The notes: generated from the sequence alone by a model not told the origin. Shown: positions 530 through 22,233, numbered from the stretch's first letter. The stretch is 64,000 nt of DNA from an uncultured Gammaproteobacteria bacterium (GCA_947258655.1 CAMYJD010000012.1:13323-77322), one strand, 5' to 3'. Numbers and translations are program-made.

Positions 530-1222
530 TCAGACATTGGGCCTGATCATGACCAGGTGGCGTTCGGCATCCAGGCCCGGCACTATCAATGGCTCCACCC
601 GCTCAATACGATAACCGTCGGGTAGGACCTCCAGCTCAGCCACAGGGTATGTGCCTTTCATGGCCAGAATCACGCCGTCGGCCGCGAGCAGTTGCGCCAC
701 CCCTGCAATCAGGTTTTCGATGGCACTATAGGCGCGTGCGGTGACCGTATCGAAACGCTGGTCGGGATGAAAGTTTTCTATCCTTTCCGTGATCACCGTG
801 ACATTTTGCAGCCCCAGTTCAGTCACCGCCTGCTGGATAAAACGGGTTTTCTTGTTGTTACTGTCGAGCAGGGTGAAGTAACATTCCGGATTGATGATGG
901 CCAGCGGTATACCCGGCAGGCCAGCGCCGCTGCCGACATCCAGTATCTGTTGTCCATGGAGATAGGGATTGATAACGATGGAATCGAGTATATGCCGCGT
1001 TACCATCAGCTTCATGTCGCGCACCGAGGTCAGGTTATAGGCCGCGTTCCATTTATGTAACAACTGAATAAACTGCACGAAATGACTGGCTGATCCTGCG
1101 GGCACACTGAAGGGCAGGGCAGGGAGCAGCTGTTCCAACATCTGCTGCAGTGCAGACGCATCAGTGGCTTCGTCCAGCGAACGCTTATGCCGGAACCGTT
1201 TCTGATTTCTGGACAGACTCAT
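530..1222 (-). CDS. rsmG: 16S rRNA (guanine527-N7)-methyltransferase RsmG/GidB
   Basis: 230 aa; GidB-like SAM-MTase motifs (LLDVGSGAGLPGIPLAI, LLDSNNKKTRF); classical partner of mnmG. Confidence 0.9.
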   Translation of the reverse strand: MSLSRNQKRFRHKRSLDEATDASALQQMLEQLLPALPFSVPAGSASHFVQFIQLLHKWNAAYNLTSVRDMKLMVTRHILDSIVINPYLHGQQILDVGSGAGLPGIPLAIINPECYFTLLDSNNKKTRFIQQAVTELGLQNVTVITERIENFHPDQRFDTVTARAYSAIENLIAGVAQLLAADGVILAMKGTYPVAELEVLPDGYRIERVEPLIVPGLDAERHLVMIRPNV

Positions 1223-1229
1223 CTAATCA

Positions 1230-1682
1230 TCAGGGTTTGGTAGCAATATCCGAGAATTTATTCAGTGCACCAGTCATTTTGGCGACGATCTCATCGCGAT
1301 CGCTGATGCCGTGACGATTAGCGAGAAATGCGGGATTATTGTACGTCAACCAGACCTTGCCGTTCTCATCCTGCCAGGCTAGGGCCTTCATGGGAAAATC
1401 AATACCGGAGGCCTGATTGCTGGTGAACATATGACTACCCAGTTTCGGGTTACCAAATATCAACAGTTCCGTTGGCCTGACATCGATGCCGACACCCTTT
1501 GCTTTTTTGTCATGGGCCCAGCGCAAGGCGACGGTAATGCCTTTCTTCTTCAATACATTTTCCAGTCTGTCTATGGTCTCCTTGACACTGAAAGCACTCG
1601 GTTTGGTGATCAATCCATGGTCTGCCTGAGCCAGCAGTGGCATACACAGAACCATTATCATCAGCAAAACTGTTTTTTTCAT
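1230..1682 (-). CDS. DUF302 domain secreted protein
   Basis: 150 aa, N-terminal signal peptide; LLIFGNPKLG...MKALAWQDENGKVWLTYNNP resembles the DUF302 signature. Confidence 0.65.
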   Translation of the reverse strand: MKKTVLLMIMVLCMPLLAQADHGLITKPSAFSVKETIDRLENVLKKKGITVALRWAHDKKAKGVGIDVRPTELLIFGNPKLGSHMFTSNQASGIDFPMKALAWQDENGKVWLTYNNPAFLANRHGISDRDEIVAKMTGALNKFSDIATKP

Positions 1683-1822
1683 GACTCTCTCCCATTTATC
1701 ATTGTTCGTCCAGATTAAGATGGCATGTCATGCATTTAGTTCATTTATAACATGCCAAGTAACATACTATTGCATTATGCATGCATTACCTCAACTCCTG
1801 TTTTTCAGGAAATAAGCACCGT

Positions 1823-2959
1823 CTAATAGTACATAAGACCGCTCTGGTCCAACCAGTATAGTCCCCCAACGGCCACGATGATTGCCGTTATCACTGCCAG
1901 TGCAATCTTGAATGGACTGTATGGACGCTCACCCTGGACAGTACCGTTCCTGCCATTAACGACAAAACGGTAGGTCTTGTCACGGAAACGGAAACTGGCC
2001 GACCACAACGGTAACAATACATGCTTGAATGTCGTGTCGCTGTGTTGCGTGTGCAGGTGAGTGATACGTTGCTGGTCACCACCGATATGCTGTCTCACAT
2101 CATTGCGAATGATATTCTCCATGACGGTTTGTGCAATTGTGAATCCTTCATCGAGCTCGACCTGGTATACCTCGCTGCTAAAACCGCTGATATAGGCCTC
2201 TGAGTACGGCACCAGATTTTCCAGGTCCCACGGCGCCAGCGAATCGGTGACTTTCCGCGGCAGGGTTTGTGTCGCGCCGATCAGTACATCATCGAAATGC
2301 CGTCGTGTGTTACCGCTGACCGGCGTCCAGCGTATGCGCGGTTGCCTACGTGTGCGTGTCACCGTGCGGCCGTTTTCAACCGTGGTATAACGCTGCTGTA
2401 CATAATAGATATCACCGCGCATGCCAGAGTAGGCGGTGCGGGTGTGACTATCATAGGTCCAGTAAGGTATATAGACCCCATGCAGTTTCGTTTCGTCACG
2501 CGCGAAGGTCTTCAACGCGCCAGGCGCGAACCATAGACCGGATATCCATTTTTTATAATATGCGCGCGCCTGTTTGTCAGTAATGCTGAACGGTAATAGT
2601 GCCTTCGCCTTGATCGGTTTGATATGGCTGGTACTGGTTATGACTGCAGTACCGCAAAACGGGCATTCACCGGCATGAATATGAGCATCGAGCTCGAACT
2701 GCGCGGCACACTGTACGCACTTGATAAAGGTCTTTTGCGCGGGAAGTGTGCGCGCACGCTGTAACTCGCGCAATGCCATATGGAAATCGATTTCGCGTAT
2801 CGGTTCACCCGTATGCACGATGGCATTGCGATGACCACAATAACTGCATTCGAGTTGGCCACTGCCGACCGCGTAGGTCAACATTGCGCCGCACTGTTCG
2901 CAGGGGTAACGTGTCTCGGTCAGCTCCCGCGTCGAGAGCTCACCTGTTGTTTTGTCCAT
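1823..2959 (-). CDS. double zinc-ribbon protein with C-terminal membrane anchor (uncharacterised family)
   Basis: Start chosen at MDKTTGEL directly after the stop of the upstream SPFH gene. Two CxxC...CxxC ribbons (CEQCGAM..CSYCGH; CVQCAAQ..CPFCGT), a roughly 250 aa unknown domain, and a terminal TM helix IALAVITAIIVAVGGLYWL. Confidence 0.6.
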   Translation of the reverse strand: MDKTTGELSTRELTETRYPCEQCGAMLTYAVGSGQLECSYCGHRNAIVHTGEPIREIDFHMALRELQRARTLPAQKTFIKCVQCAAQFELDAHIHAGECPFCGTAVITSTSHIKPIKAKALLPFSITDKQARAYYKKWISGLWFAPGALKTFARDETKLHGVYIPYWTYDSHTRTAYSGMRGDIYYVQQRYTTVENGRTVTRTRRQPRIRWTPVSGNTRRHFDDVLIGATQTLPRKVTDSLAPWDLENLVPYSEAYISGFSSEVYQVELDEGFTIAQTVMENIIRNDVRQHIGGDQQRITHLHTQHSDTTFKHVLLPLWSASFRFRDKTYRFVVNGRNGTVQGERPYSPFKIALAVITAIIVAVGGLYWLDQSGLMYY

Positions 2960-2961
2960 AT

Positions 2962-4062
2962 TCAGCTTTTCGGCAAGGGTGGTGGTTGGTCTGCCTGAAA
3001 CTGCGCCGTCAATGCAGCGACCTGTCCGGCCGGCTTCCATTGCGCCATGCCGTTCGCCCACACCAGCGTTTCGGCATTGATCTCACCATTCATGATCCTG
3101 GCCCGTACCTCATTGACACTGAACGGACCACTGGCTTCGCCATTCACGGCGACATGGTATTGCGTCTCGATTGGCAATGGTGGTGGCGTAGCCGCACTGC
3201 TTGAACCGCTATCCATGTCCCGTGCCAGTTTATTGGCCATCGCAAAACCGACACCGAGACCAATACCATCTGCGGCGCCACCGCCCGGGTTATCAGCGGC
3301 GGCCTCCATTGCGGCACCGGTTTGATATTTCAGGTATTTATCCAGATTACCTATCACACCCATACTGGTGCGCTTGTCCAGCGCCTGTTCCACGGTCGGT
3401 GGCAGGGATATATTTTCCACCAGCATATTGGCCAGTTCGAGACCGTACTCGGCAAATTCCGGGGCAATGCGCTGGGTCAGGAATTCGCCCAGCTGGTCAT
3501 AGTTGGCTGCCATATCCAGCACCGGGATATTGGCCGATGCGACAACTGTGGCAAAGCGTGACGTGATCAGGTTACGTAACTGGTCACTGATTTCATCGGT
3601 TGTGAACTGACCATCGGTACCGACGATCTCACGTATGAACTTGAGTGCATCGTTAATACGAACAGCATAGGTGCCGAAGCCGCGCAAACGCACCGCACCG
3701 AATTCGCTATCGCGTAACATCAACGGATTTTTCGTTCCCCATTTCAGATCAACAAAACGCTTGCTATTGCAGAAATAGACCTCGGCCTTGAATGGACTGT
3801 TAAAGCCATGATCCCAGTGTTGCAGGGTCGTCAGGATCGGCAGGTTTTTGGTCTCCAGTTCATAAATGCCCGGCGTCAGTACATCGGCGACCTCGCCTTC
3901 ATTGACGAATACCGCCACCTGGGATTCACGCACAGTCAGTTTGGCGCCGTATTTGATTTCATTGCCATAGCGCTCGAATCGATACACCATTGTGTCCTGT
4001 GTGTCATCGGTCCATTCGATAACATCAACAAATTCACCAAACAGTTTGTCAAACAATCCCAT
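2962..4062 (-). CDS. SPFH/band-7 domain protein with Pro-rich linker and C-terminal GYF-like (DUF4339-type) domain
   Basis: 366 aa; N-terminal MGLFDKLFGEF plus SPFH-like core; PPPLP linker; C-terminal YHVAVNGEASGPFSVNEVRARIMNGEINAETLVWANGMAQWKPAGQV. Confidence 0.7.
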   Translation of the reverse strand: MGLFDKLFGEFVDVIEWTDDTQDTMVYRFERYGNEIKYGAKLTVRESQVAVFVNEGEVADVLTPGIYELETKNLPILTTLQHWDHGFNSPFKAEVYFCNSKRFVDLKWGTKNPLMLRDSEFGAVRLRGFGTYAVRINDALKFIREIVGTDGQFTTDEISDQLRNLITSRFATVVASANIPVLDMAANYDQLGEFLTQRIAPEFAEYGLELANMLVENISLPPTVEQALDKRTSMGVIGNLDKYLKYQTGAAMEAAADNPGGGAADGIGLGVGFAMANKLARDMDSGSSSAATPPPLPIETQYHVAVNGEASGPFSVNEVRARIMNGEINAETLVWANGMAQWKPAGQVAALTAQFQADQPPPLPKS

Positions 4063-4081
4063 TTCAGTTCTCCTGTTACGT

Positions 4082-5203
4082 TTAGCCAGGTCTGCTGGAT
4101 ATGGTCGTTGCCGCCGCGGTTCCCGTTGCGCTGTGCAATTCGCTTTCCAGTTTCATTAAGGTTGATTCGGCCTCACGATGATGCTGTTGACCTTCAGTAA
4201 CAATGTGCAGGCTTTCTTCCACGCTGGCAATAAGCTCCTTGTTGGCACGCCTGATAGATTGCGCAGCATGCAGCTTTTTGTTGTTTTGCACCAGTAACTC
4301 CTGGCTCTGTTTTATTGCACCTGCAGCGTGACCTGCCTCGACCATACTACGATGGATGCTCACCGCCTCGGTGAGTTGCTGACGCCAGATCGATACCGTA
4401 TTCAGCAGTGTGGTATCGATCTTGTCAACCAGTTGCTTGTCGTTCTGCTGCACTATACGGATACCGGGAATACCCTGCAACGACACCATACGTGTCAATG
4501 TCAGGTCCTGTATGCGCCGTTGCAGATCGTTGCGGCCCATGCGCAGGTCGCGCAGTGCCTGATCTTCGACAACAGTCTTTGTCGAGCCTGTTGCCTGTTC
4601 CAGTTCGGGCAACATATCCGCGTCAATAATCCGCAACTGTTCTTGCGCCGCACTGATGTAGAGCTCGAGCTCCTGAAAATATTCAAGGTTGGTCATATAG
4701 AGCTTGTCGAGCGTGGCAATATGACGCAACAGATTGGTCTTGTCTCTTTCCAGCTTATCCGTTATGGAATCGATTTGTCTGCGCACCCTTTCATACTGCT
4801 GTATGAACCTGGCGACCGGTGTAGCGCGACCAAATAACCTTGCCAGCAGACGCTTGAAGAATCCGGGCTTTGGCGCCTGATCCAGAACGTCCAGATCAAA
4901 ACTGTGTAACACCGTGACAATCTCACTGAGGGATTGACCAGCAGAACCGAGGTTGTTGTCACGCACCCCTTCGAGCAGACTGTCCGTAATGGTCGCCAAC
5001 TGTTGCTGGGCCTGGCTGCCAAAGAACATGATCGATTGACTGCTGCTAATGTCTATGTCATGCATCAGGCGCGCGATGATTTGCTTTTGCCCGGGTTCGG
5101 CCTCGGCATAGGCAACAGGCTCGCTATCGAGCGTGGGTAAATCGCCCGTAGCAGATACAGCTGCATGAGGCGGTAGTGTATTCATGCCCTGATCAATGGT
5201 CAT
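4082..5203 (-). CDS. TelA-like (toxic anion resistance family) protein
   Basis: 373 aa soluble protein with long coiled-coil segments, size and composition like TelA/YaaN; sits next to an XpaC-like gene as in the Bacillus xpaC-yaaN pair. Confidence 0.5.
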   Translation of the reverse strand: MTIDQGMNTLPPHAAVSATGDLPTLDSEPVAYAEAEPGQKQIIARLMHDIDISSSQSIMFFGSQAQQQLATITDSLLEGVRDNNLGSAGQSLSEIVTVLHSFDLDVLDQAPKPGFFKRLLARLFGRATPVARFIQQYERVRRQIDSITDKLERDKTNLLRHIATLDKLYMTNLEYFQELELYISAAQEQLRIIDADMLPELEQATGSTKTVVEDQALRDLRMGRNDLQRRIQDLTLTRMVSLQGIPGIRIVQQNDKQLVDKIDTTLLNTVSIWRQQLTEAVSIHRSMVEAGHAAGAIKQSQELLVQNNKKLHAAQSIRRANKELIASVEESLHIVTEGQQHHREAESTLMKLESELHSATGTAAATTISSRPG

Positions 5204-5265
5204 GTATATGCGCCCTGATAATTCATTGTGAGCAGTGCTGATGATTTTATATCAGCATGATTCAT

Positions 5266-6108
5266 TCACACTATCCCTTCCTTTTCCAGTTGCATTTGCA
5301 ATACCTCGATCTGGACATCCAGTTCAGTGGCATTATTTTCCATTAGCTTTTTCTGTTGTTCGGCTATGACTGTTTCAATCGTCGCCAGCACACGCCTGAA
5401 ATTTTCATCCAGTTCGCTCGATTCCATATGCTCGTGAGCGCGTGCATAACCGCTCGTGACTTGCTGTGCTCCGTCCAGATACACCTTGAGGAACTTGCGT
5501 GCACGCCTGGCATCACGCGGGTCTTCTTCGATAGTCTGCAGAATATTTCGTGTTTGTTTGACGATGCGCCGCAGCCGTTGCCTGAGTTCCTGGTTGTTGA
5601 TTCTGGCGCGCGCTTCTTCAATGCTCTGAATTTTAGTCTCCGCCTCGTCAAGCAGGTCCAGTACTTCTTCGGAGGTAATCCCGACTGCAGCAATCCCGGT
5701 GCCATCGCGCGCCGGGTCAAAACCGTAATACAGATAAAAACCGGTCAATGCGGCAATGCCGAGCAATAGACTGACAATAATGCCATTACCGATGGCCAGC
5801 CATGAGGTGATGGCGACTGCGATACCAAGCAGGATGGCGCCGAGCGTTTTATAGGGCAGGGTACTGGTACGCCGTACAATCTTGCGTTGTTTTGCCCGTG
5901 CTTCAATTGCAAAGCCCTTACGTGCAAGGGTTGCCGCGATCATGGCCAGGATAAATCCCGCGCCACTACCGGTTGCCAGTGTCAGGTTATCATTCAATAA
6001 TCCCCGTAATGCGGCCAGTAACAACGGGAAGGGCAGGATATACAGCAGGATACCGCGCAGCTGGTAGCGTGACGGTTTGATGCTGTCCGGTTTGTAGCGC
6101 CTGGCCAT
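5266..6108 (-). CDS. XpaC-like membrane protein (N-terminal TM helices, C-terminal TelA-related helical domain)
   Basis: 280 aa; four predicted TM helices followed by a coiled-coil region containing ARKFLKVYLDGAQQV. Confidence 0.45.
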   Translation of the reverse strand: MARRYKPDSIKPSRYQLRGILLYILPFPLLLAALRGLLNDNLTLATGSGAGFILAMIAATLARKGFAIEARAKQRKIVRRTSTLPYKTLGAILLGIAVAITSWLAIGNGIIVSLLLGIAALTGFYLYYGFDPARDGTGIAAVGITSEEVLDLLDEAETKIQSIEEARARINNQELRQRLRRIVKQTRNILQTIEEDPRDARRARKFLKVYLDGAQQVTSGYARAHEHMESSELDENFRRVLATIETVIAEQQKKLMENNATELDVQIEVLQMQLEKEGIV

Positions 6109-6123
6109 GATGCTAATAATGCC

Positions 6124-6213
6124 CTAGATAGAAAACAGCGCCTGCCATGAGATCAGGCCAATGGTTGCCAGTAGCAATATCAGGCCAATGGTTTTTTTCA
6201 GCATTAGCGGCAT
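6124..6213 (-). CDS. 29-aa single-TM micro-protein at head of cassette
   Basis: rc ORF MPLMLKKTIGLILLLATIGLISWQALFSI preceded by GGGGGAG Shine-Dalgarno 5 nt upstream; not in ORF track (too short). Confidence 0.3.
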   Translation of the reverse strand: MPLMLKKTIGLILLLATIGLISWQALFSI

Positions 6214-6327
6214 ATACACTCCCCCGAATTAAATCTATTGACGATCATACTTAAAGCACAGCTATATATTAAAGATAACAAGCGTTAATTATTGTAATAA
6301 TATTACGTTGTATTGATAAGCGGCCTG

Positions 6328-8208
6328 TTATGCTGAGCGTCGCTGTTTCTTCAAATGTACAAGTAGCAACGATACCGCTGCCGGCGTCATACCCGGGATG
6401 CGGCTGGCCTGACCAATGGTCAGTGGCCGGGTCTTGTTTAATTTTTCAGTGACTTCGAAAGACAGCCCCCTGACAGTACTGTAATCCAGCGTCGCGGGAA
6501 TCCTGGTCTCTTCATGTTTGCGGTGTCTGGCGATCTCTTCCTGCTGACGATTGATATAACCGGAATACTTGATCTGGATCTCTACCTGTTCGGCAACCTT
6601 CGGGTCGGTCACCGCAGTACCTGCGCCTGGCAGGGTCATCAGTTTCTGATAGCTGACCTCGGGGCGACTGAGCAATTCGTCCAGCCTCGCCGCGCGTGTC
6701 AGGGCCTGCCCCAATACCTCGCAAACAATATCAGCAGGGACCTTTTCCGGGGCAATACTGGTACTGCGCAGGCGCTTTTTCTCGGACTCGACGGCTTGCT
6801 GTTTTTGTTCAAAGGCATCCCAGCGATGATCATCCACAAGACCGAGCTCACGACCTGTCGGTGTCAGGCGCAGATCGGCATTGTCTTCTCGCAGTAACAA
6901 ACGATACTCGGCCCGGCTCGTGAACATGCGGTAGGGTTCTGCGGTACCACGCGTAATCAGGTCATCGATCAGTACACCGATATAGGCCTGGTCGCGGCGC
7001 GGACACCAGGGTTCCTGTTCACGGGTATACTGGCAGGCATTGATACCGGCCACGAGACCCTGGGCCGCCGCCTCTTCATAGCCTGTCGTACCGTTGATCT
7101 GACCGGCAAAGAACAGGCCATCGATGAATTTCGTCTCTAGCGACGGCTTCAGGTCGCGCGGATCGAAAAAATCATATTCAATCGCATAACCCGGGCGGGT
7201 GATGTGCGCATTCTCGAATCCCTTCATCGAACGCACCAGTTCATACTGGACATCGAACGGCAGACTGGTGGAAATTCCGTTCGGATAGACCTCGTGGGTC
7301 TGCAGGCCTTCGGGCTCGACGAAGATCTGGTGCGATTGCTTGTCGGCGAAACGCACGACCTTGTCCTCGATAGAAGGGCAATAGCGCGGGCCGACACCAT
7401 CGATGACACCGGTATACATCGGCGAGCGGTCCATACCGGAACGAATGATATCGTGCGTCTGTTCATTGGTATGGGTGATGTAACAGGGAATCTGTTCGGG
7501 GTGTTCATCGGCATGCCCCATATACGAGAACACCGGCACCGGCATATCGCCCGGCTGTTCTTCCAGCACGCTGTAATCGATACTGCGCCCATCGATGCGT
7601 GGCGGTGTGCCGGTCTTCAGGCGATCGACACGGAAAGGCAGCTCACGCAGGCGCTGTGACAGCGCATTGGCTGGCGGGTCACCGGCACGTCCACCCTGAT
7701 AATGGGACAGGCCGATATGAATCAGGCCACCGAGAAATGTACCCACCGTCAACACAACCGAGCGCGCTGAAAAACGCAGGCCCATCTGTGTCACAACACC
7801 GACAACCCGGTCCTGATCGACAATCAGGTCGTCAACGGCCTGCTGGAACAGACTCAGGTTCGGCTGGTTTTCCAGCGTCTCCCTGACCGCCTGTTTATAT
7901 AACACCCGGTCTGCCTGTGCGCGCGTCGCTCGTACGGCCGGCCCCTTACGGGCATTCAATGTACGGAACTGGATGCCGCCGAGATCGGCGGCATGGGCCA
8001 TGACACCGCCCAGCGCATCCACTTCCTTGACCAGGTGACCCTTGCCTATGCCGCCAATGGCTGGATTACAGCTCATTTGGCCCAGCGTTTCGATATTATG
8101 GGTCAGCAGCAGCGTCCTGGCACCCATTCGTGCAGACGCAAGCGCCGCCTCGGTACCGGCATGACCACCACCAATCACAATGACATCGAAATCTTGCTGA
8201 TATTTCAT
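6328..8208 (-). CDS. mnmG: tRNA uridine-5-carboxymethylaminomethyl modification enzyme MnmG/GidA
   Basis: 626 aa; FAD motif [15 protein letters not shown]; full-length GidA architecture. Confidence 0.95.
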
Positions 8209-8606
8209 ATAGTTAACTATCGAGACTCAAAATGTAACTCATCCGCAGTTCGTCTGGATTCTGCAAATAATAGGTTATATCTATCAATTTTATGTTAATG
8301 ATAGAAAAGTCTGAATAAAACCAGGCGTCTGCCAGGCTTGGATACGCAAAATTGAACACTTTTTAACCAGCGCGTATTCTATGCCTTTTTGTCTTGCATG
8401 GCCAACATCACGGCAATGGTCTGAGACGCACGTAATGATGGCCAAACAGTGGTGCAATACCCCATCATTAAGGATTGTTTCTGTGTAAACAAATGCAATC
8501 ATTTACTCAATATAAAAACAATCATTTGTATAAATTCAGACGCGATCTGGCAGATTGATAGACCAGTTTCAATATTATTTGACGGTCAAGATGCCGAAAA
8601 ACCAAC

Positions 8607-8663
8607 AAAGCGGACATTCACAACTAAGAGACTGTATGGCCGGGGCCGACCCTAAACGGCCTG
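8607..8663. repeat. 57-nt intergenic repeat element, copy A (perfect 16-mer AAAGCGGACATTCACA then GGCCGG..CGACCC core)
   Basis: about 72% identical to copy B at 38328-38384, sharing a perfect 16-mer. Confidence 0.5.
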
Positions 8664-8907
8664 TCGTGGAGTGTGAAGAAAACGAACGTTTACTGTACAC
8701 GCGAAGTCCGACTGTGAACAACCAAGTTAATTTCTTCCTGTTGATACTGTAATGGCATTAAGTAAAACATTCTACACGGCTGGAACTGAACCTAAGCTGC
8801 CTGGATAGTCATACCCACAGTAAGTGCTTATCTCACTGTTTTTACTAGTATATCTACCTATCATGAGGAAAATTAGGTAAAAATCCAAAAAATATTCCTT
8901 CATTTAC

Positions 8908-8938
8908 TTGACCTGGAGTTGACTCTAGGTTGTAGGCT
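8908..8938 (+). promoter_or_regulatory. MerR-type promoter: -35 TTGACC, 19-bp spacer with dyad ACCTGGAG-N4-CTCTAGGT, -10 TAGGCT
   Basis: seen directly about 80 bp upstream of the merP-like start; a 19-bp spacer with a centred dyad is the MerR-family operator layout. Confidence 0.45.
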
Positions 8939-9015
8939 TTCTACTGCCTTAATATTAAAACTGCCCGGCTAGCCACCGATTGACTGGCTGATGAACTTAC
9001 TATGAGGAAAAAGCA

Positions 9016-9312
9016 ATGAAACGAATATTGATATTGACAGGTTTATTCCTATTGCCTTTATCACCATTTGCGGCCGATAAACAGGTTGTGGAAATTGATA
9101 TCGAAGGTATGAGTTGTAAATTCTGTGCACTTAGTGTGAAAAGGAATCTGTCCACATTACCCGGTGTAGACAAGGCGGCAGTCAGTTTTAAGGACAGGAA
9201 GGCTCATATCAAGATGGCTCCGGGTAAAAAGGCTGATGTAGCTCAGATTAACAAAAAAGTTAATGAAGCTGGTTTTAAGCCTGTGAACGTAACCGTCAGC
9301 AAGGATGATTAA
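9016..9312 (+). CDS. periplasmic heavy-metal-associated (HMA) protein, MerP-like
   Basis: 98 aa, signal peptide, GMSCKFC metal-binding motif. Confidence 0.8.
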   Translation: MKRILILTGLFLLPLSPFAADKQVVEIDIEGMSCKFCALSVKRNLSTLPGVDKAAVSFKDRKAHIKMAPGKKADVAQINKKVNEAGFKPVNVTVSKDD

Positions 9313-9336
9313 ATTCTATTTTTCTGGAGACGAGTC

Positions 9337-9621
9337 ATGAGTATCAAGATAGAAATATTTTCCTCACCTGGTTGTGGTAAGTGTGGTCATGCCAAAGAAG
9401 TTTTACGCAAACTGGCTGATGAATTAGGTGGTGATAATATCCAGTGGCGTGAAGTGAATATTCTCGATGAAATGGACCATGCCGTTGATCTGGGCGTGCT
9501 ATCTACACCATCCATTGTTGTAGATGGCAAACTAGTTTTCGCAAGCCTACCTTCAGTTAAAAACCTTCGTACCGAACTGGAACGCATGCTGGATATGAGT
9601 GATCAGGATTCAAAAACATGA
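9337..9621 (+). CDS. small thioredoxin/glutaredoxin-fold protein (CGKC active site)
   Basis: 94 aa, SPGCGKCGHAK motif; translationally coupled (ATGA overlap) to the downstream membrane protein. Confidence 0.65.
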   Translation: MSIKIEIFSSPGCGKCGHAKEVLRKLADELGGDNIQWREVNILDEMDHAVDLGVLSTPSIVVDGKLVFASLPSVKNLRTELERMLDMSDQDSKT

Positions 9622-10925
9622 TAACTTTATTACTCCTTACCGCAACACTATTGGGCCTACTGGCCTTTTTTGAACCGTGTACCATTGCGACTCACACCCT
9701 GTTTTCAGTGCGAGCACATCAATCAGAAGACAATAAAACATGTTGTCAAAGTTTGCTGTCTGTCTGGTTGGGTCGAACTGCTTTATTAGTGGGGCTGTTT
9801 ACTATAGCCGTGTTTTTTACAGAGGCTCCACAGTGGGGGCCTTACACACCCAGTATTATTCTGTCTGCTATGGCTGTACTTTACCTGGTATCACGCTTTA
9901 TCTATATCCCGGTGCCGCATCTTGAGTTTTTCAAATTATTGCCAAATGGGAGGAACTTACCTCATGGCATACAACTAGGCTTGACCTTACCCGCCTGTAC
10001 CTTACCTTTGGTTATCGTGACTGTTGGTATGGCGATTACTGTGGATTCAATAAGTATTGCCGCCATAGCTGGATTTCTTTTTGCAACACTGTTTACACTA
10101 CCTATGGTTATTGCAACATATAAAGGTGTTCATGAATATGCGAGACAACTATTGAATCGTGCAGCTGTAGGCAGTCCATATCTAACGGCCGTCCTGCTAT
10201 TCAGCACAGCACTTTACCTGTTAATTCCTGCTTTAGATATCAGCTCGGAAATGCTTAAGGAAACCTTTCAGACAGCGAGCTGGGCCGGAATCGGAATAGC
10301 ATTTTTGGCAGGCTTTGTTTTTAGCTTTAATCCAGTGTCCTTTGCTTCTATTCCCGTCATGCTGGCTTATGTTACCAAAGCACATGAGGAGCGAAGGGCT
10401 TTGTTAATGGGCGGCGCCTTTGTACTTGGGATGGTTTTTACTCATGTTGTACTGGGTGTGGCTGCCGCACTTGGAGGTGAATGGGTACAAGGTGTTATGG
10501 GGAGGCAATGGGGCATACTCCTCGGGCCTATACTGATCATCATGGGGCTGATGTGGTCAGGTGCAGTAAATATCCGCTTGCCGTGGTTTGGGGTCAAAGG
10601 CCGAAAAGTAACGGGTATTTGGGGTGCCTTTTTATTGGGAATTCCATTTTCTGTTGCTGTATGTCCCTTCTGCACACCAGCTTTACTGGTTACATTAACG
10701 GCCAGTGCAGCGATTGGTTCAGTCAGTTTTGGTTTTGCCCTATTATTTGCGTTTGCGTTAGGTCGTAGCATACCTATCATATTGGGTGCCTGGAGTATGG
10801 GTTGGTTAGAGTCATTGCAGATACTCTCCCGATATCAAAAATGGTTTGAAGTAACCGCAGGGATTGTGCTTGTTATCGCCGGCTTGTATTTACTGAATGA
10901 GTATTTCTTTTTTATTGAATATTGA
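9618..10925 (+). CDS. CcdA/DsbD-family thiol-disulfide transporter-like polytopic membrane protein
   Basis: 435 aa, at least 10 TM helices; C-terminal half resembles the DsbD transmembrane domain (CPFCTP motif) but has NPVSF where the first Cys motif is expected. Confidence 0.55.
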   Translation: MITLLLLTATLLGLLAFFEPCTIATHTLFSVRAHQSEDNKTCCQSLLSVWLGRTALLVGLFTIAVFFTEAPQWGPYTPSIILSAMAVLYLVSRFIYIPVPHLEFFKLLPNGRNLPHGIQLGLTLPACTLPLVIVTVGMAITVDSISIAAIAGFLFATLFTLPMVIATYKGVHEYARQLLNRAAVGSPYLTAVLLFSTALYLLIPALDISSEMLKETFQTASWAGIGIAFLAGFVFSFNPVSFASIPVMLAYVTKAHEERRALLMGGAFVLGMVFTHVVLGVAAALGGEWVQGVMGRQWGILLGPILIIMGLMWSGAVNIRLPWFGVKGRKVTGIWGAFLLGIPFSVAVCPFCTPALLVTLTASAAIGSVSFGFALLFAFALGRSIPIILGAWSMGWLESLQILSRYQKWFEVTAGIVLVIAGLYLLNEYFFFIEY

Positions 10926-10945
10926 TAAATGATCAAACTGGAATC

Positions 10946-11347
10946 ATGTATAAAATTGGCGAAGTAACAGAGCGCACGGGCCTATCGGCCGACACATTAC
11001 GATATTACGAAAAAATTGGGTTACTACCGAATATATCGCGTAACACATCAGGTGTGCGCTTGTATAGCGAGAAGGATCTTTCAAGGCTAAATTTCATCAA
11101 GCGAGCACAACGCATGAATTTTACGCTTGATGAAATCAAGCAGTTACTAATGATGCGTGAAGACCCACAGCATGCAAAAGACACTGTGCGCCAGTTAACA
11201 GCTAAAAAGCTTGAGGATATCGAAAACCACCTTACAGACCTATCAACTCTCAGGAATGAACTAACACTACTACTTAATTTATGCCGTGCAAGCGAAGAGG
11301 GCTGCCCCATTATTGAAGATCTGGATACCGACAAACAAAAGAAATAA
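10946..11347 (+). CDS. MerR-family metal-responsive transcriptional regulator (CueR/ZntR-like)
   Basis: MYKIGEVTERTGLSADTLRYYEKIGLL HTH; C-terminal C-x6-C (LCRASEEGCP) metal site. Confidence 0.85.
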   Translation: MYKIGEVTERTGLSADTLRYYEKIGLLPNISRNTSGVRLYSEKDLSRLNFIKRAQRMNFTLDEIKQLLMMREDPQHAKDTVRQLTAKKLEDIENHLTDLSTLRNELTLLLNLCRASEEGCPIIEDLDTDKQKK

Positions 11348-11552
11348 ATGTTATCTATTAGTTTAGACAGATAGCATTATTTGAAGATTAGGAAATGAAA
11401 TACTTACGACTGATATTATTACTTTTCTTTGTTATAGAGAGCGCATTTTTCTCGATAGTATACGCTGTAAATAAATTCCCACCTTTTGTAATGCAACTCA
11501 CAATAAGTGCAGAAAATTATGGACATAGAAAAGCCTTAATACAAATAAATAA

Positions 11553-11822
11553 GGTTTTAATGATATTGGAGAAAAGAAACTCAAGATTGCTATAGTCGCT
11601 AATGAAGACGGGATACATGCCCTATTGGAAGAGAATAAAGAAACCTCTCAACTCTTAACTAAATTAGCAAATCGAGGGGTTAAATTTAAAGCATGCCGTA
11701 TTAGTATGCGTGCCTGGAAATTAAAAGATAATCAGTTCCCGCTGGAAGTAGAATTTGTACCGGTTGGCGCACCTGAAGGTATAAAGTTACAAATGCAAGG
11801 TTATAAATATTGGCGACCATAA
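11553..11822 (+). pseudogene. possible DsrE/TusD-like small protein lacking a canonical start codon
   Basis: Open frame ..DIGEKKLKIAIVANEDGIHALL..GVKFKACRISMRAW.. looks like a YchN/DsrE-fold N-terminus. The frame has no ATG; an ATT sits where an ATG would be expected; low-GC surroundings. Confidence 0.2.
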
Positions 11823-12139
11823 TATTTGTCTGTAACCTCGAACACTAGTCTACCTTGAATGCCCGATTTTGTGATACTAAATATTAGTATGCATAAGAAA
11901 CGTACGTTAATTGTACGTTCACAATATTCGTCAATTAAATCAGTTTGTAGTCTTTCAGTGTAAAGAAACTGATGTACAGCGAAAGTATGGGAAACTTTAC
12001 CCAGCAATACTGTAATCAGATGACTGCTTTTGACCGTTCTCTGTAGTTGATTAATGGAATGTCGAACGGCTATTGATTCACCTGACCAGGCAGTCTTCAG
12101 AAGCAAGACATACAGGCGCCGGTAGCAGCCGCCCCGGGA

Positions 12140-12622
12140 TTATTCCTTGACCGGGTGCTTGGCCAGTTTACGCTGCAAGGTTCGTCGATGCATGCCAAGG
12201 CGACGCGCGGTTTGCGAGATATTGCCCTGGCACTCGTTCAACACTTTATGGATATGCTCCCATTCCAGGCGCGCAACGCTGAGTGGTTTGGCTCGTAACG
12301 GTACACTGACGTCGCCTTCATCCTTATGAAAGGCATTGATAATTTCATCGGCATCGGCGGGTTTAGTCAAGTAATGCCTTGCGCCCAGTTTTATGGCCTC
12401 AACGGCCGTGGCCACCGAGGCATAACCGGTCAGGACAACGACACGGGTATTTTCATCCAGCGCCATCAATGCCTTGACCAGCTCGAGTCCGGAATCTCTC
12501 GGCATGCGCAGATCGACAACGGCATACTCCGGTGACTCCTGCCTGGCCGCGGCAATACCTTCATTGACATTATGTGCTATGCGCACATGATAGCCGCGCT
12601 GCTGCATGGCATCGGACAGCAC
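12140..12622 (-). CDS. RegA/ActR/PrrA-like response regulator (receiver + Fis-type HTH), N-terminally truncated
   Basis: C-terminus SQTARRLGMHRRTLQRKLAK matches the RegA HTH. The ORF begins at a GTG within the receiver domain; the acidic pocket (LLxVDDD) is absent and an in-frame stop lies 14 codons upstream. Confidence 0.5.
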   Translation of the reverse strand: MLSDAMQQRGYHVRIAHNVNEGIAAARQESPEYAVVDLRMPRDSGLELVKALMALDENTRVVVLTGYASVATAVEAIKLGARHYLTKPADADEIINAFHKDEGDVSVPLRAKPLSVARLEWEHIHKVLNECQGNISQTARRLGMHRRTLQRKLAKHPVKE

Positions 12623-12672
12623 TTCTATGTCCGAATAATTACAAATATGCCGCCCAGACTGTATTCATTTGC

Positions 12673-12963
12673 TCAATCGTGTTTTCTGTAACAGGCGCCC
12701 TTTATATCCATCATTGCCTGTATACTTTCGACACCGCTCAAGTGCTCCAGCAGGCAATTGTTGTATGCCCGTCTCTTGTCTGATGTAAAACTGGGGCTTC
12801 CATAGTTCTCTTCGCAGGCCCGCTTTATCACACGTGCTGCTACATCGAGTTTTACCCCCTTCAGGTGCTTCAGAATACAATCATCGTATTCGGATTGACC
12901 TGCCAATACTGGTACCGACAACATGACAGACAGTATGCTGATAATAATCGGTGCATGTTTCAT
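12673..12963 (-). CDS. small secreted protein with two internal Cys-containing repeats
   Basis: MKHAPIIISILSVMLSVPVLA signal peptide; repeats DCILKHLKGVKLDVAARVIKRACEEN and NNCLLEHLSGVESIQAMMDIKGACYRK; GGAG RBS. Confidence 0.4.
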   Translation of the reverse strand: MKHAPIIISILSVMLSVPVLAGQSEYDDCILKHLKGVKLDVAARVIKRACEENYGSPSFTSDKRRAYNNCLLEHLSGVESIQAMMDIKGACYRKHD

Positions 12964-13006
12964 ATTGACTCCAATACCTGGGTAACGGCCTGTTATTATG
13001 GACTCT

Positions 13007-14404
13007 CTATATCTGGTCGAGTTCAATAATATCGCCCGCTTGCGGCACTGATGCTGTCAATTGTAATTTATCATGCAGCAATTGGCTGAACTGCTGCTTG
13101 ACTTCGGCCTCGCCATGCACAACAAATACCCTTGGTTTATTGCTGAAGCCGCTTGCCCAGTGCAACAGATCTTTCTGGTCGGCATGCGCTGACAATCCGC
13201 CAACCGTATGGATATGTGCATTGACCTTGTAAAAATCGCCGTGGATCTTTATCTCATCTTCCCTGTTGACCAGCCTGCGGCCCAGAGTTCCGTTGGCCTG
13301 GTAACCGACGATCATGACATGGCATTCATGGCGGCTGATATTGTGTTTCAAATGATGAACGATACGGCCACCATTGCACATACCGCTGCCTGCAATGATA
13401 ATGGCACCACTCTTGATTTCATTGATCTGCATGGATTCTTCCACGGCATGGGTCAGATTCAGGTTACGCAAATGGGGCATTTCATTAATCTGGCTGCGTA
13501 ACTTTGTTGCCTCCTCATCATACAGGTGGGGATAATCCCAGTAGATATGACTCGCCTCGATAGCCATCGGACTGTCGAGAAATATTTGCCAGCGATCCAG
13601 TTCCCATTCATCGTAATGCGTACCCAGCAGATACAGCAACTCCTGACTGCGGCCAATAGAAAATGCCGGTATCAGTATATTGCCATGTTCATGGCGGGCA
13701 CTACTGATGACTTCACCAATTTCCTCAATTGTATGTTGCCTGTCCCGGTGCAGACGGTTGCCATAGGTACTTTCCATTAATACCAGGTCCGCTTCCTCGA
13801 TCGAGGTCGGATCGTTGAGGATAGGCGTATCGTACTGGCCTATATCACCGCTGAAAACAAGTTTACGGCGAACATTACCTTCACTGAGCCACATTTCCAC
13901 CATACAGGAACCCAGTATATGCCCGGCATCCTGGTAACGTATGGATATGCCTGGCAATATCTCTGTTTGTTGACGATAGGGCAAACCCTGCATTTGCTCC
14001 CATGCCGTGATCGCATCCGCCTCAGTATACAGGGGCTCTATTGCTTCCATCCCGTTTTTGGCGCGCTTTTTGTTTTCATATTTTGCATCGCGTTCTGCCA
14101 GACTGGCGGAATCGCGTAATAGAACCGCACATAGATCACGGGTCGCATTTTGTGTATATACCGGTCCACTGTAACCACGCTTGACCAGTAAAGGTATACG
14201 ACCAGAATGGTCGATGTGCGCATGGCTTAGCACCACGGCATCCAGTTCATCCGGATTAAAGGGAAAAGGTTCATGATTAGCCTGTTCTTCCTTGCGCCTT
14301 CCCTGTATCAGGCCACAATCAATCAGGATCTGGTACTGGCCACACCTGATAATATGGCATGATCCAGTCACACCTCCTATAGCACCGTAAAATTCCAGTT
14401 CCAT
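13007..14404 (-). CDS. MBL-fold metallo-hydrolase with beta-CASP/RNA-specificity domain (RNase J-like)
   Basis: HAHIDHSG motif and size; start taken at MELEFYGA. Confidence 0.8.
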   Translation of the reverse strand: MELEFYGAIGGVTGSCHIIRCGQYQILIDCGLIQGRRKEEQANHEPFPFNPDELDAVVLSHAHIDHSGRIPLLVKRGYSGPVYTQNATRDLCAVLLRDSASLAERDAKYENKKRAKNGMEAIEPLYTEADAITAWEQMQGLPYRQQTEILPGISIRYQDAGHILGSCMVEMWLSEGNVRRKLVFSGDIGQYDTPILNDPTSIEEADLVLMESTYGNRLHRDRQHTIEEIGEVISSARHEHGNILIPAFSIGRSQELLYLLGTHYDEWELDRWQIFLDSPMAIEASHIYWDYPHLYDEEATKLRSQINEMPHLRNLNLTHAVEESMQINEIKSGAIIIAGSGMCNGGRIVHHLKHNISRHECHVMIVGYQANGTLGRRLVNREDEIKIHGDFYKVNAHIHTVGGLSAHADQKDLLHWASGFSNKPRVFVVHGEAEVKQQFSQLLHDKLQLTASVPQAGDIIELDQI

Positions 14405-14566
14405 TAACATGCTCCTCATCTAATCTCTGCACGGATACATATCGTTCCGCAAAATACAGATTAATAATCATGGATATCGCTTTTATGATTATAAATCAGC
14501 TCCACAATTTTTCATCAATCTATCAGTCAAGCATCAGTACACTATTGTTCCTGTACTTATAATCAT

Positions 14567-15259
14567 CTAGTCTCCACCACAGCCGCCACCACAATCAGAA
14601 CCGCAGTTTGACGAGTCGAACAGGCCATCAAAAAATCCTGCGGAATCCGTATCTGCAGCACTGTCACCCGCACAACCCGATGAACAACCAATATGAGCGG
14701 CACAATAACCATCTCCATATACCGGCGACTGCTTGTCTGTACAATTTATCGAATATTTAAACCCATTGGGTATATCCAGTATTGTATCGATAGCAAAGAT
14801 CAATGGTAATTTTGAAGGTCTGCCGGGATGTATATGTTCGCGGGCACATGCAAGACGCCATGCGCGCTTGATGCCATGCTGGGCTAATGTCGGCGTTGTC
14901 ATGGCTTCTGTAGGTGTATGATGCAGGAATCTTCCTAACGCCTTGCGGCAGAATATTTTATAGGAGCGTGTGAACAGGATAAATTCATGCCAGGCCTCAT
15001 CAACGACCTGTGAAGGCATGGCTACCATGTTGCGTCCGCCATGATTGCACATCCAGAAATAATCACGCAATGCACGAAATACCATATGAACCTGTTGTTC
15101 ATCAAGGTGAGGATACTTGTCACAAATCTTGTTTCTGATCGACCTGTGGAACTGATAACGCTTGATGTATTGCAGTTGTCTGGATCTATGGTGCCTGATA
15201 TAGATCCATGTCAGTAAGGCCATTAAACTGAAGGTTATAATTATTACATCCCAACCCAT
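14567..15259 (-). CDS. N-terminally membrane-anchored protein with Gly/Cys/Ser/Asp-rich C-terminal tail
   Basis: 230 aa; TM helix VIIITFSLMALLTWIYI; tail ..GCSSGCAGDSAADTDSAGFFDGLFDSSNCGSDCGGGCGGD. Confidence 0.5.
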   Translation of the reverse strand: MGWDVIIITFSLMALLTWIYIRHHRSRQLQYIKRYQFHRSIRNKICDKYPHLDEQQVHMVFRALRDYFWMCNHGGRNMVAMPSQVVDEAWHEFILFTRSYKIFCRKALGRFLHHTPTEAMTTPTLAQHGIKRAWRLACAREHIHPGRPSKLPLIFAIDTILDIPNGFKYSINCTDKQSPVYGDGYCAAHIGCSSGCAGDSAADTDSAGFFDGLFDSSNCGSDCGGGCGGD

Positions 15260-15511
15260 AATATTCCCTCATCACGTTGTTCATGAATAATGACACGTTC
15301 CGTGGTCATTCGATAATGATTAAATCTTTGACTGGCTACGATATTAACCCAGACCTGTTGTTATTACCCTGTGTAAAACATATCACATTGCTGATGTTTC
15401 AGCGCATACAAATCCAGTGAATTCAATGACTCTGTGTTGATCCCGGCTTTTCAGCTTCGTTTAAGCTTGGCCTGATATGCTACCTGTAAATCGTAGAACA
15501 GGGGTTACAAC

Positions 15512-16102
15512 ATGCACGCTCAACAATATACAAAGGTATGGGATCCGTTTGTACGCATCTTTCATTGGGCGTTGGTCGCCGCTTTTGTGCTGGCCTATGT
15601 TACGGAGGATGAGCTAATGACGCTGCATGCCTGGGCCGGTTACAGCGTCCTCGCCCTGGTAGTAAGCAGGATTATCTGGGGTCTGATCGGCAACCGCCAT
15701 GCGCGTTTTCGCGATTTTGTTTATTCACCGGGCACGATTATGCAGTTTCTCAGGGATACGTTGCATCTACAGGCGAAGCGCTATCTGGGCCACAACCCGG
15801 CCGCTGGTGCGATGGTTATCATGCTGTTGTTGAGTCTACTGATCACATCATTGACCGGTCTGGTTGTATATGGCGCAGAGGAGGCTGCCGGCCCGCTTGC
15901 AGGCTGGGCCAGCCAATTCGGCCATGACCTGGCTGAGGCATTCGAGGAAGTGCACGAATTTTTTGCCAATTTCACGTTATTTCTGGTGTTCCTGCATGTA
16001 GCCGGGGTGGTCCTGGAAAGCATGATACAGCGTGAAAATCTGGTTGCGTCAATGATCAATGGCAAAAAACAACTCAGACATCAGGAGACTGAGCAAAAAT
16101 GA
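15512..16102 (+). CDS. cytochrome b561-family membrane di-haem protein
   Basis: 196 aa; VWDPFVRIFHW and HNPAAGAMV motifs, four TM helices. Confidence 0.8.
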   Translation: MHAQQYTKVWDPFVRIFHWALVAAFVLAYVTEDELMTLHAWAGYSVLALVVSRIIWGLIGNRHARFRDFVYSPGTIMQFLRDTLHLQAKRYLGHNPAAGAMVIMLLLSLLITSLTGLVVYGAEEAAGPLAGWASQFGHDLAEAFEEVHEFFANFTLFLVFLHVAGVVLESMIQRENLVASMINGKKQLRHQETEQK

Positions 16103-16167
16103 TAGCGCAACAATTAATCACTGGCTATTCACAAATCTGACATTACTATTATACAAAGGAGTACACG

Positions 16168-16470
16168 ATGAAAAAACGTAACATGCTTATTATTATCGGT
16201 GCCGCGATCATTGGCTACCTGTCTTTAACTCAGGCAGATACACATGATGAGGCCAGATCACTGCGTGATCAGGGTGAGATCCTGGCGCTGGAGACAATAC
16301 TGGAGCGCGCCCGCAAGGATTATCCCGGCAAGGTCATCGAAGTGGAACTGGAGAGCGAACACGGTAGCTACCTGTATGAGATCGAGATTCTCGACAAACA
16401 GGGCAGGGTATGGGAACTTGAATACGATGCCCGTACTGGTGAACTTGTAAAACAGGAGCAGGATGACTGA
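16168..16470 (+). CDS. PepSY domain secreted protein
   Basis: 100 aa, signal peptide; PGKVIEVELESEHGSYLYEIEILDKQGRVWELEYDARTGEL. Confidence 0.75.
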   Translation: MKKRNMLIIIGAAIIGYLSLTQADTHDEARSLRDQGEILALETILERARKDYPGKVIEVELESEHGSYLYEIEILDKQGRVWELEYDARTGELVKQEQDD

Positions 16471-16482
16471 CGCAGGTAGCCT

Positions 16483-17151
16483 ATGAGACTGTTATTGATC
16501 GAGGATGACATAACACTTGTACAACAGTTGAAACCGGAACTGGAACGTTGCGGTTTCGCTGTTGATGTCAGCCATGACGGTGTCGAGGCTGAATATCTGG
16601 GCAATGAGGCTATCTATGACCTTGCCATCCTCGATCTCGGTCTTCCCAAACGCAGTGGTATTGAGGTACTGAGAAACTGGCGCAAGCATGATAATCATAT
16701 ACCCGTCATCATATTGACCGCACGCGATGACTGGCATGAACGAGTGGATGGTTTTCAGGCAGGCGCCGATGATTATCTGGGTAAGCCCTTTCATAGTGAA
16801 GAACTGATCGCACGTATCCAGGCATTACTGCACCGCGTCCATCAGCAGCCTGCCGGGCTGCTAAAGGCGGATGGCCTGAGCCTGGATGAGGAAGCACAAT
16901 CCGTCCGCCTCGATAGCGGAGCCACCTATACGCTGACCAACACCGAGTTCCGCCTGTTACGTTACTTCCTCCTGCACCCGGATAAACCGTTATCAAAAAT
17001 GCAACTGAGCGAACATGTCTATGAACTGGATGCAGACAAGGACAGTAATGTCATCGAGGTCTATGTGCGACGCCTACGGGAAAAACTGGGCAAGACGCGT
17101 ATCGAGACGCGGCGAGGGCAGGGCTATGTATTTCGGAGCCGGCTGACATGA
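16483..17151 (+). CDS. OmpR-family response regulator
   Basis: receiver (LLLIEDD..DLGLP) plus winged-helix C-terminus. Confidence 0.9.
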   Translation: MRLLLIEDDITLVQQLKPELERCGFAVDVSHDGVEAEYLGNEAIYDLAILDLGLPKRSGIEVLRNWRKHDNHIPVIILTARDDWHERVDGFQAGADDYLGKPFHSEELIARIQALLHRVHQQPAGLLKADGLSLDEEAQSVRLDSGATYTLTNTEFRLLRYFLLHPDKPLSKMQLSEHVYELDADKDSNVIEVYVRRLREKLGKTRIETRRGQGYVFRSRLT

Positions 17152-18503: not shown

Positions 18504-18714
18504 TTTCCGCTACCCCCATAATAAACCGTCGCCAAACGTACACACGTATTTTTAACCATAGGTTTATAAAGGAATTGTAGCCAGGCAAACCTGTGTGTAA
18601 ACTCAAGCTATGGCAGGTTCAGACGTTAACCGATTAATATAATGAGTAAATAATTTCGGCCACTATCCGGGCAAATAAGAAATATGTAATTATACACAAT
18701 AAAACAATAGGTTA

Positions 18715-19581: not shown

Positions 19582-19606
19582 AAATTACAGCGAAGCGCAC
19601 AGTGCG

Positions 19607-21916: not shown

Positions 21917-22099
21917 GTGATAAAGCGCATACATTGATTAATACCGTTTACTATGTTCCATTACGTCAATAATCTTCAGATCATGGAATGACAGGCAGAG
22001 ACTCTGATTTATTCAGCACACCTGGACATAGATAAACTGGTGTCAATAAAACAGTCGGTAGATAACATACTAAAACATCTACGACCCCAGTTCCCTGCT

Positions 22100-22198: not shown

Positions 22199-22233
22199 GC
22201 TGGTCCCTACCCTGGCGTTATGTTCTCGATTGA

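Follow-up and report, generated by a model that had tools for sequence, protein, structure and literature searches.

Six genes separate mnmG from rsmG in a 64,000-nucleotide (nt) stretch of DNA from an uncultured Gammaproteobacteria bacterium, the whole of which is called the window in the following. Which of these genes belong together, how did they come to lie at this site, and what could their products do? An initial annotation, made from the sequence alone, had taken the six genes as one membrane-stress cassette splitting the mnmG-rsmG pair. Here we describe that five of them, encoding a micro-peptide, an XpaC-type protein, a TelA-family protein, an SPFH protein and a double-zinc-ribbon (ZnR) protein, constitute a conserved unit (1823–6213, minus strand), an operon which joins two known membrane-stress gene pairs. 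With a probability of roughly 0.55, we regard this operon as a fusion of the xpaC-yaaN and ydjG/ydjI pairs which was inserted once and which acts as a membrane-stress scaffold without PspA.

Gene organisation of the interval

All six open reading frames (ORFs) between rsmG and mnmG are located on the minus strand and are separated by small gaps, and their coordinates agree with the arrangement initially described. In the direction of transcription, the module begins with a 29-amino acid (aa) micro-protein with a single transmembrane (TM) segment, recognised by its ribosome-binding site and its conservation (6124–6213; minus strand, as for all genes of the interval). It is followed by the XpaC-type protein (5266–6108; Pfam PF10112 Halogen_Hydrol/XpaC, 7.4e-32), the TelA/YaaN-family protein (4082–5203; Pfam TelA, 3.2e-71), the soluble SPFH protein (2962–4062; Pfam Band_7_1, 1.8e-101, and GYF_2, 3.2e-19) and the tail-anchored ZnR protein (1823–2959), a YdjG/SamG homologue by sequence. 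The intergenic gaps from mnmG to rsmG amount to 114, 15, 62, 19, 2, 140 and 7 nt. A longer call of the ZnR gene with a GTG start gives 1823–3061; the ATG at 2959, two bases past the SPFH stop codon, fits the N-termini of homologues in the alignment. Searches with Pfam and NCBIfam profiles upheld all domain calls of the initial annotation beyond the curated thresholds, with every Pfam assignment exceeding its gathering score. Hydropathy analysis likewise agreed with the four TM segments of XpaC, the C-terminal anchor of ZnR, the secreted nature of the DUF302 protein and the TM segment of the micro-protein.

Conservation of the five-gene module

A neighbourhood survey of ZnR homologues, as proposed in the initial annotation, was carried out with one genome per species for the 80 closest loci (numbered L003–L082) including 10-kb flanks; 66 of these loci contained enough upstream sequence to be informative. 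The genes for XpaC, TelA, SPFH and ZnR were found in the same order and orientation in 50 of the 66 informative species-representative loci. Two of the other 16 lacked only a clear XpaC, two contained SPFH-ZnR only and twelve, mostly from Competibacteraceae, had ZnR alone. As this gene order recurs in so many informative loci of different species, the arrangement is far beyond chance. The lineages include Granulosicoccaceae, Thiothrix, Thiolinea, Cocleimonas, Arenicellales, some Competibacteraceae and one Sulfurimonas metagenome-assembled genome. ORF clustering across the 80 loci revealed that any further neighbour gene was common to at most 19 of them, and neither DUF302 nor mnmG nor rsmG was found beside the module in any of these distant loci.

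The module is conserved in Gammaproteobacteria, with variants in Alphaproteobacteria and Campylobacterota. Paracoccus chromids carry the variant TelA-DUF2927-SPFH-ZnR and Enterococcus (L087) the variant SPFH-YdjG-TPM, and a Vibrio coralliilyticus plasmid (NZ_CP048695.1; L086, 626–8062) contains the SPFH-ZnR pair without TelA or XpaC. In an uncultured gammaproteobacterium (L008), the XpaC match (3–458) lies about 7 kb upstream of TelA-SPFH-ZnR (7524–11089), where something seems to have been inserted within the module.

These results bear on the initial impression of an unfamiliar gene combination. The operon-like string proved real, but it is widely conserved and not peculiar to this genome. 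Its SPFH and zinc-ribbon genes, which had been counted as part of the unfamiliar combination, instead correspond to the YdjI/YdjG (SamI/SamG) pair of pspA-ydjGHI. In the searchable literature, we found no paper which links TelA or XpaC with SPFH, Band-7 or YdjG/YdjI; a comparative-genomics survey of Ter systems from 2012 may mention this neighbourhood.

The SPFH and zinc-ribbon proteins

Among Band_7_1 SPFH proteins, to our knowledge, only that of the SamG/SamI pair has been studied so far, and there it serves PspA. The B. subtilis pspA-ydjGHI reference used for comparison was recovered from a metagenome contig via a primer sequence in PMC8581546. The SPFH protein of the window matched Band_7_1 (PF13421) with 338.5 bits over 211 of 211 profile positions and shares 25% identity with YdjI in an alignment of 258 aa across the Band_7_1 domain (E 4e-34). 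Hydropathy analysis revealed no TM segment. The ZnR protein can be aligned with YdjG over its full length (BLASTP, 25% identity, 342 aa, E 3e-33), and hhalign returned a probability of 99.8% over 324 columns. Its two CxxC..CxxC ribbons (aa 20–41, 2837–2902, and aa 81–102, 2654–2719, both minus strand) contain eight invariant Cys residues. The alignment showed many further invariant columns and a conserved globular domain between the ribbons and the C-terminal TM helix predicted by hydropathy (aa 352–370, 1850–1906, minus strand). Ravi et al. (PMC11237479) described this same architecture for YdjG, whose family has 6683 representatives at 50% clustering. The AlphaFold2 (AF2) model of ZnR was poor, with a predicted local distance difference test (pLDDT) value of 53.5 from a 25-sequence alignment, and the homology to YdjG rests on sequence. 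Judged by these comparisons, ZnR is a full-length homologue of YdjG/SamG, and SPFH a homologue of YdjI/SamI. In a phage collection, ZnR gave weak matches with 21–26% identity on unannotated, Firmicutes-associated contigs.

The C-terminal part of the SPFH protein consists of a Gly-rich linker and a PPPLP-GYF_2-PPPLP tail (aa 293–364, 2971–3186, minus strand), in which a Pfam GYF_2 domain (aa 302–351, 3010–3159) is preceded by one PPPLP motif (aa 293–297, 3172–3186) and followed by a second, terminal one (aa 360–364, 2971–2985). Motifs of the type PPP[LIV]P were present in all 58 SPFH orthologues, with two copies in 45 of them. Eukaryotic GYF domains bind proline-rich peptides. The layout of the tail suggests a built-in ligand/receptor pair, which might mediate self-association or autoinhibition.

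TelA and XpaC

TelA/YaaN and XpaC proteins recur in tolerance screens with nisin, daptomycin, cationic peptides and tellurite, and we know of no mechanism for either of them. The TelA protein of the window matched PF05816 with 240.6 bits (cut-off 30) over profile positions 3–327 of 332 and is 30% identical to B. subtilis YaaN over 367 aa (E 7e-46). It contains no TM or hydrophobic segment according to hydropathy analysis. Its AF2 model (pLDDT 85.9) consists of helices throughout, three of which are about 80 residues long, and includes a helical head. A fold search with this model retrieved generic long helical bundles, e.g. ClyA-family toxins, IpaD, BAR domains and designed bundles, and PspA, Vipp1 and ESCRT-III were absent among the fold matches listed. 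TelA shows only a generic resemblance to membrane-binding bundles of the ClyA and BAR types. The TelA profile also did not match B. subtilis PspA. TelA is therefore not homologous to PspA, by profile as well as by fold.

Among the listed matches in a plasmid collection, Paracoccus TelA was the best match to the window TelA with 40% identity, while Firmicute YaaN proteins reached about 30% and the remaining listed TelA homologues at most 27%. Because of these differences in identity, the TelA of the module appears to belong to a subfamily linked to the SPFH/ZnR pair, and the sequences suggest that it travels or co-evolves with this pair.

The XpaC-type protein matched PF10112 with 111.3 bits (cut-off 29.8), and its direct match to B. 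subtilis XpaC was weak (E 1e-5). Hydropathy analysis of its 280 aa revealed four N-terminal TM segments followed by a polar helical region (aa ~140–280), which is predicted to be cytoplasmic. The xpaC gene is located directly upstream of telA. As initially noted, this adjacency mirrors the xpaC-yaaN pair of B. subtilis: the order is identical, and the two proteins are assigned by the YaaN and Pfam XpaC matches given above. In E. faecium, xpaC and telA influence daptomycin binding and phospholipid microdomains, and the phenotype of an xpaC deletion requires an intact telA (PMC6811118), in accordance with a soluble effector that is anchored or regulated by its partner. A Listeria telA (lmo1967) mutant was raised in its nisin sensitivity according to work cited in PMC12791056. 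In B. subtilis, both xpaC-yaaN and pspA-ydjGHI belong to the sigma-W regulon (PMC3498285).

The micro-protein and the upstream region

The 29-aa ORF at the start of the module is preceded by a GGGGGAG Shine-Dalgarno sequence and encodes one hydrophobic helix as judged from hydropathy. In 42 of 54 loci, which represent several families, XpaC is preceded by a homologous peptide with the motif MPxxLxKxIGFxLLLATVGLxSxQA. The Shine-Dalgarno sequence and this recurrence before XpaC identify the ORF as a real gene. In many lineages (L003, L005, L009, L011 and others), the micro-peptide contains a segment ...VG(L/M)(L/V)SCQA... similar to the lipobox of lipoproteins; if it were cleaved at this position, the mature peptide would have just 6 to 25 residues. 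The micro-peptide of the window has Trp in place of Cys, and lipidation therefore cannot be essential.

A conserved non-coding block of 18 nt, TTACAATAnTTAACGCTT (6280–6297, minus strand), lies upstream of the operon. It is invariant in five members of the clade which carries the module at this site, namely the window and the relatives L001, L002, L089 and L093. As L001 and L002 have a spermine synthase gene instead of mnmG upstream, the block travels with the cassette. It is a candidate binding site for a regulator, proposed from its conservation; no regulator gene was found adjacent to the block or the promoter region. A consensus scan also yielded a sigma-70-like promoter candidate (TTAATA, 17 nt, TATGAT; 6244–6272, minus strand). 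The scan as a whole showed no enrichment compared with shuffled sequences, and the candidate is argued instead from the conservation of its –10 hexamer (TATGAT, 6249–6244), which is kept as TAT(G/C/T)AT upstream of the micro-gene in the same five clade members. Since block and hexamer are conserved whatever gene lies upstream, the module carries its own regulatory region.

The insertion site and its history

The module is flanked upstream by mnmG (6328–8208, minus strand; Pfam GIDA, 2e-174; NCBIfam TIGR00136, 1.2e-284) and downstream by a gene for a DUF302 protein (1230–1682, minus strand; Pfam DUF302, 6.5e-17) and rsmG (530–1222, minus strand; Pfam GidB, 9e-57; NCBIfam TIGR00138, 1.4e-53). 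Relatives were ranked by their MnmG identity, which levels off at about 77% across many orders, and their contigs were inspected. Two genomes, L090 (MnmG 84%) and L088 (87%), have the arrangement mnmG-DUF302-rsmG without the cassette. L089 (87%) and L093 (92%) have the same layout as the window, and L001 (89%) and L002 (92%) contain the cassette together with an extra block directly after mnmG, which encodes two DUF4178 proteins, a 54-aa ORF, DUF350 and spermine synthase (L001, 2511–6391; L002, 2614–6488). The window, L089 and L093 lack this block, which was gained or lost repeatedly at the same site. ZnR-DUF302-rsmG is also present in L091 and L092. The initial annotation had named, as a finding that would refute its proposal, relatives with the same genes between mnmG and rsmG as ordinary core genome. 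This applies in part: all the relatives named here except L088 and L090 carry them, but sister lineages do not.

In a neighbour-joining tree of MnmG, the bearers of the cassette form one clade with the cassette-free genomes outside, and the identities of the cassette proteins track those of MnmG. Both observations fit one old insertion followed by vertical descent. We conclude that a single insertion between mnmG and DUF302, in a small clade, brought the module to this site and that it was inherited vertically since then. The mnmG-rsmG location is a clade-specific insertion accident without a functional link to tRNA/rRNA modification. Within this clade, the interval represents a recurrent landing site for membrane-stress modules beside the resident DUF302 gene.

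DUF302 is considered resident because L088 and L090 contain it between mnmG and rsmG without the cassette, in agreement with the gap of 7 nt to rsmG as compared to 140 nt to the ZnR gene. From this spacing, DUF302 and rsmG are probably co-transcribed. The DUF302 protein has a signal-peptide-like N-terminus ending in AQA|D. It also matched the C-terminal half of the model NF002454 for the fluoride efflux transporter CrcB (1.5e-29, far under the cut-off), and this match suggests that DUF302 and CrcB are fused in certain organisms.

Beyond mnmG, the region towards mnmE (8209–22233), about 14 kb long, is variable and low in G+C content (34–45%). It contains HMA, a thioredoxin-like gene, DsbD_TM, MerR, two two-component systems, a hybrid histidine kinase, a beta-CASP nuclease, cytochrome b561 and a phosphonate-binding protein. 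In L090, mnmE directly abuts mnmG. Several points of variable insertion therefore exist in this clade along the origin-proximal backbone rnpA-yidC-mnmE-mnmG-rsmG-parAB. DnaA boxes without mismatch lie on both sides of dnaA (26298–26321 and 27720–27774), which locates the replication origin close to dnaA and not, as in E. coli, next to mnmG; the cassette site was rejected as oriC, as the DnaA boxes cluster at dnaA and not near mnmG. An Rfam scan of the whole window was empty.

Alternative explanations

The module might be interpreted in other ways. That all six genes including the secreted DUF302 work as one module, as initially proposed, would be in line with their shared strand and close spacing in the window and in five relatives. 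This proposal is contradicted by the residency of DUF302 in the cassette-free genomes L088 and L090, by its absence beside the module in L003–L082 and by the unequal gaps on its two sides, and we consider it highly improbable. A recently acquired mobile genomic island is also improbable, if somewhat less so. The module varies in presence among related genomes, the block with two DUF4178 genes, DUF350 and spermine synthase is present in some relatives and missing in others at this very site, and the low-G+C region of about 14 kb lies across mnmG. Against such an island, no integrase or transposase was detected among the genes in 530–8208, a tRNA scan of the whole window was empty, and alignments of empty and occupied junctions revealed no flanking repeats or split target, the intergenic DNA being too diverged. 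Furthermore, the G+C content of the cassette (49–57%) is similar to that of mnmG and rsmG, and the monophyly of its bearers in the MnmG tree together with the parallel identities points to one old event.

Two further explanations concern the function. The first is defence against phages or xenobiotics, in which TelA together with the SPFH scaffold would build a sub-membrane barrier or trigger abortive infection upon phage-induced membrane damage. TelA was indeed described as forming sub-membrane structures which block the entry of phages and xenobiotics (Aravind group, PMC7824862), it is common on conjugative plasmids, and the SPFH-ZnR pair on the Vibrio coralliilyticus plasmid (L086) adjoins genes for TIR-domain and TRAFs-binding-domain proteins, possibly a defence-island context. 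However, PADLOC-DB 2.0 returned no match for five of the six proteins and only marginal ones for ZnR (E 5.7e-4 and 9e-3, candidate families PDC-S64 and PDC-M14A). The neighbours of the module in the 80 loci are lineage-specific housekeeping genes (e.g. AddAB-like nucleases, thiopurine S-methyltransferase, a radical-SAM enzyme) rather than defence genes, and the module itself is inherited vertically beside core genes and lacks a nuclease, an NTPase or another effector enzyme. The phage-triggered variant considered in the initial annotation thus received no direct support, and we regard a defence function as unlikely. About as unlikely is a dedicated determinant of resistance to toxic anions such as tellurite, selenite or other chalcogens. 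In 19 Granulosicoccaceae loci (e.g. L003, 5780–6472), the gene immediately preceding the module encodes a thiopurine S-methyltransferase (PF05724, 1e-63), and bacterial members of this enzyme family are reported to methylate tellurite and selenite. This adjacency is confined to one family and may be plain synteny, and the module has no transporter, reductase or methyltransferase. The TelA family was named after tellurite resistance, and a Listeria telA mutant was 2-fold more sensitive to tellurite (PMC12791056), yet telA and xpaC mutants are more strongly affected by membrane-active antibiotics than by tellurite (PMC12791056, PMC6811118), and for the SPFH/YdjG half the link in Bacillus is to membrane stress. 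A barrier against phages or xenobiotics, chalcogen resistance and a recent mobile island are all less well supported than a membrane-stress scaffold, because PADLOC was negative and the module contains neither enzymes or transporters nor mobility genes.

Proposed function of the module

The role in envelope or membrane stress, one of the options named in the initial annotation, is the best reading, given the homology to the Bacillus membrane-stress pairs. Starting from the gene content, homologies, gene order and insertion history described above, a mechanism can be proposed by homology, gene context and analogy with SamG/SamH-SamI-PspA. In B. subtilis, SamG/SamH recruit SamI, and SamI recruits PspA to the membrane (PMC8581546; bioRxiv 10.64898/2026.02.06.704340). 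By analogy, recruitment by the YdjG-like anchor would place the soluble SPFH protein on the cytoplasmic side of the inner membrane, where the PPPLP-GYF-PPPLP tail may drive self-association or autoinhibition of SPFH. The SPFH assembly would be coupled to the TelA helical bundle, which XpaC and perhaps the micro-peptide would hold at the membrane. TelA would then fill the operon slot of Bacillus PspA by non-homologous displacement, and the joint task of the five proteins would be to detect membranes that are damaged or perturbed and to stabilise them.

A more specific proposal, which we consider tentative and less probable than the scaffold as such, is a hitherto unrecognised, PspA-independent membrane-maintenance machine, in which a YdjG-anchored SPFH lattice, self-linked by the PPPLP-GYF-PPPLP tails, recruits or gates TelA, with XpaC and the micro-peptide holding TelA at the membrane. 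If true, TelA, obscure in function since it was named after tellurite resistance, would thereby receive a mechanism, and the proposal would explain the sigma-W co-regulation of xpaC-telA and the SPFH/YdjG genes in Bacillus. Irrespective of such details, a widely conserved operon that lacks PspA and physically unites the two pairs leads to the prediction of a single complex or pathway for TelA/XpaC and the SPFH/YdjG scaffold. This prediction can be tested in the tractable Paracoccus, with its TelA-DUF2927-SPFH-ZnR variant, and in Bacillus with YaaN/XpaC and SamG/SamI.

Relation to known systems

The closest known counterpart of one half of the module is pspA-ydjGHI (pspA-samGHI) of B. subtilis, which likewise combines a soluble Band_7_1 SPFH protein (YdjI/SamI) with a two-zinc-ribbon TM protein (YdjG/SamG). 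In contrast to pspA-ydjGHI, the window operon contains neither PspA nor a YdjH/TPM gene. Pfam and NCBIfam profiles detected no PspA domain in the six interval proteins, to which this search was confined, and Pfam no TPM domain in these proteins. A tblastn search with B. subtilis YdjH, which covered L083–L092, matched only the Bacillus loci and Enterococcus L087. The order in the window is SPFH followed by ZnR, as in Enterococcus, and not ydjG-ydjH-ydjI, and the remaining slots of the operon are occupied by TelA, XpaC and the micro-peptide. Moreover, a C-terminal zinc ribbon as in YdjI (CPNCG...CPNCG) was not found in the SPFH tail, which has no Cys pairs and is formed by PPPLP-GYF_2-PPPLP instead.

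The other half resembles the xpaC-yaaN/telA pair of Bacillus, Listeria (lmo1966-lmo1967) and E. faecium, in which members of the same families are encoded in the same order, XpaC then TelA. This pair has been implicated in the response to cell-envelope stress and in resistance to antibiotics that act on membranes (PMC12791056, PMC6811118). In Firmicutes, it forms a stand-alone operon of two genes, whereas the pair in the window is fused with SPFH/YdjG and preceded by the 29-aa TM peptide. The window XpaC with its 280 aa and four TM segments also differs from B. subtilis XpaC (204 aa). A TelA-family protein is likewise part of the Ter and KlaABC-TelA plasmid tellurite clusters. There, the partners are entirely different; genes of the TerB/C/D/Z and KlaB/C types are absent from the window. 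Among the TelA homologues listed, those not belonging to the SPFH/ZnR-linked or the Firmicute YaaN group are at most 27% identical.

The flotillin-NfeD operons (E. coli yqiJK, B. subtilis yuaFG/floT) share with the module a gene for an SPFH scaffold beside that of a small membrane partner and a link to membrane stress. Unlike the membrane-inserted flotillins, the SPFH protein of the window is a Band_7_1 protein without a TM segment, and its partner is a YdjG-like zinc-ribbon protein and not NfeD. Finally, polyamine/DUF350 operons of the DUF4178-DUF350-spermine synthase type are associated with PspA (Ravi et al. 2024, PMC11237479), and such a block is located directly upstream of the module in L001 and L002, where it constitutes a second membrane-stress-type module. 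Its absence from the window, L089 and L093 places it outside the module described here. Each half of this module was thus already known; their union in a PspA-less, TelA-containing SPFH/YdjG module is uncharacterised and widely conserved.

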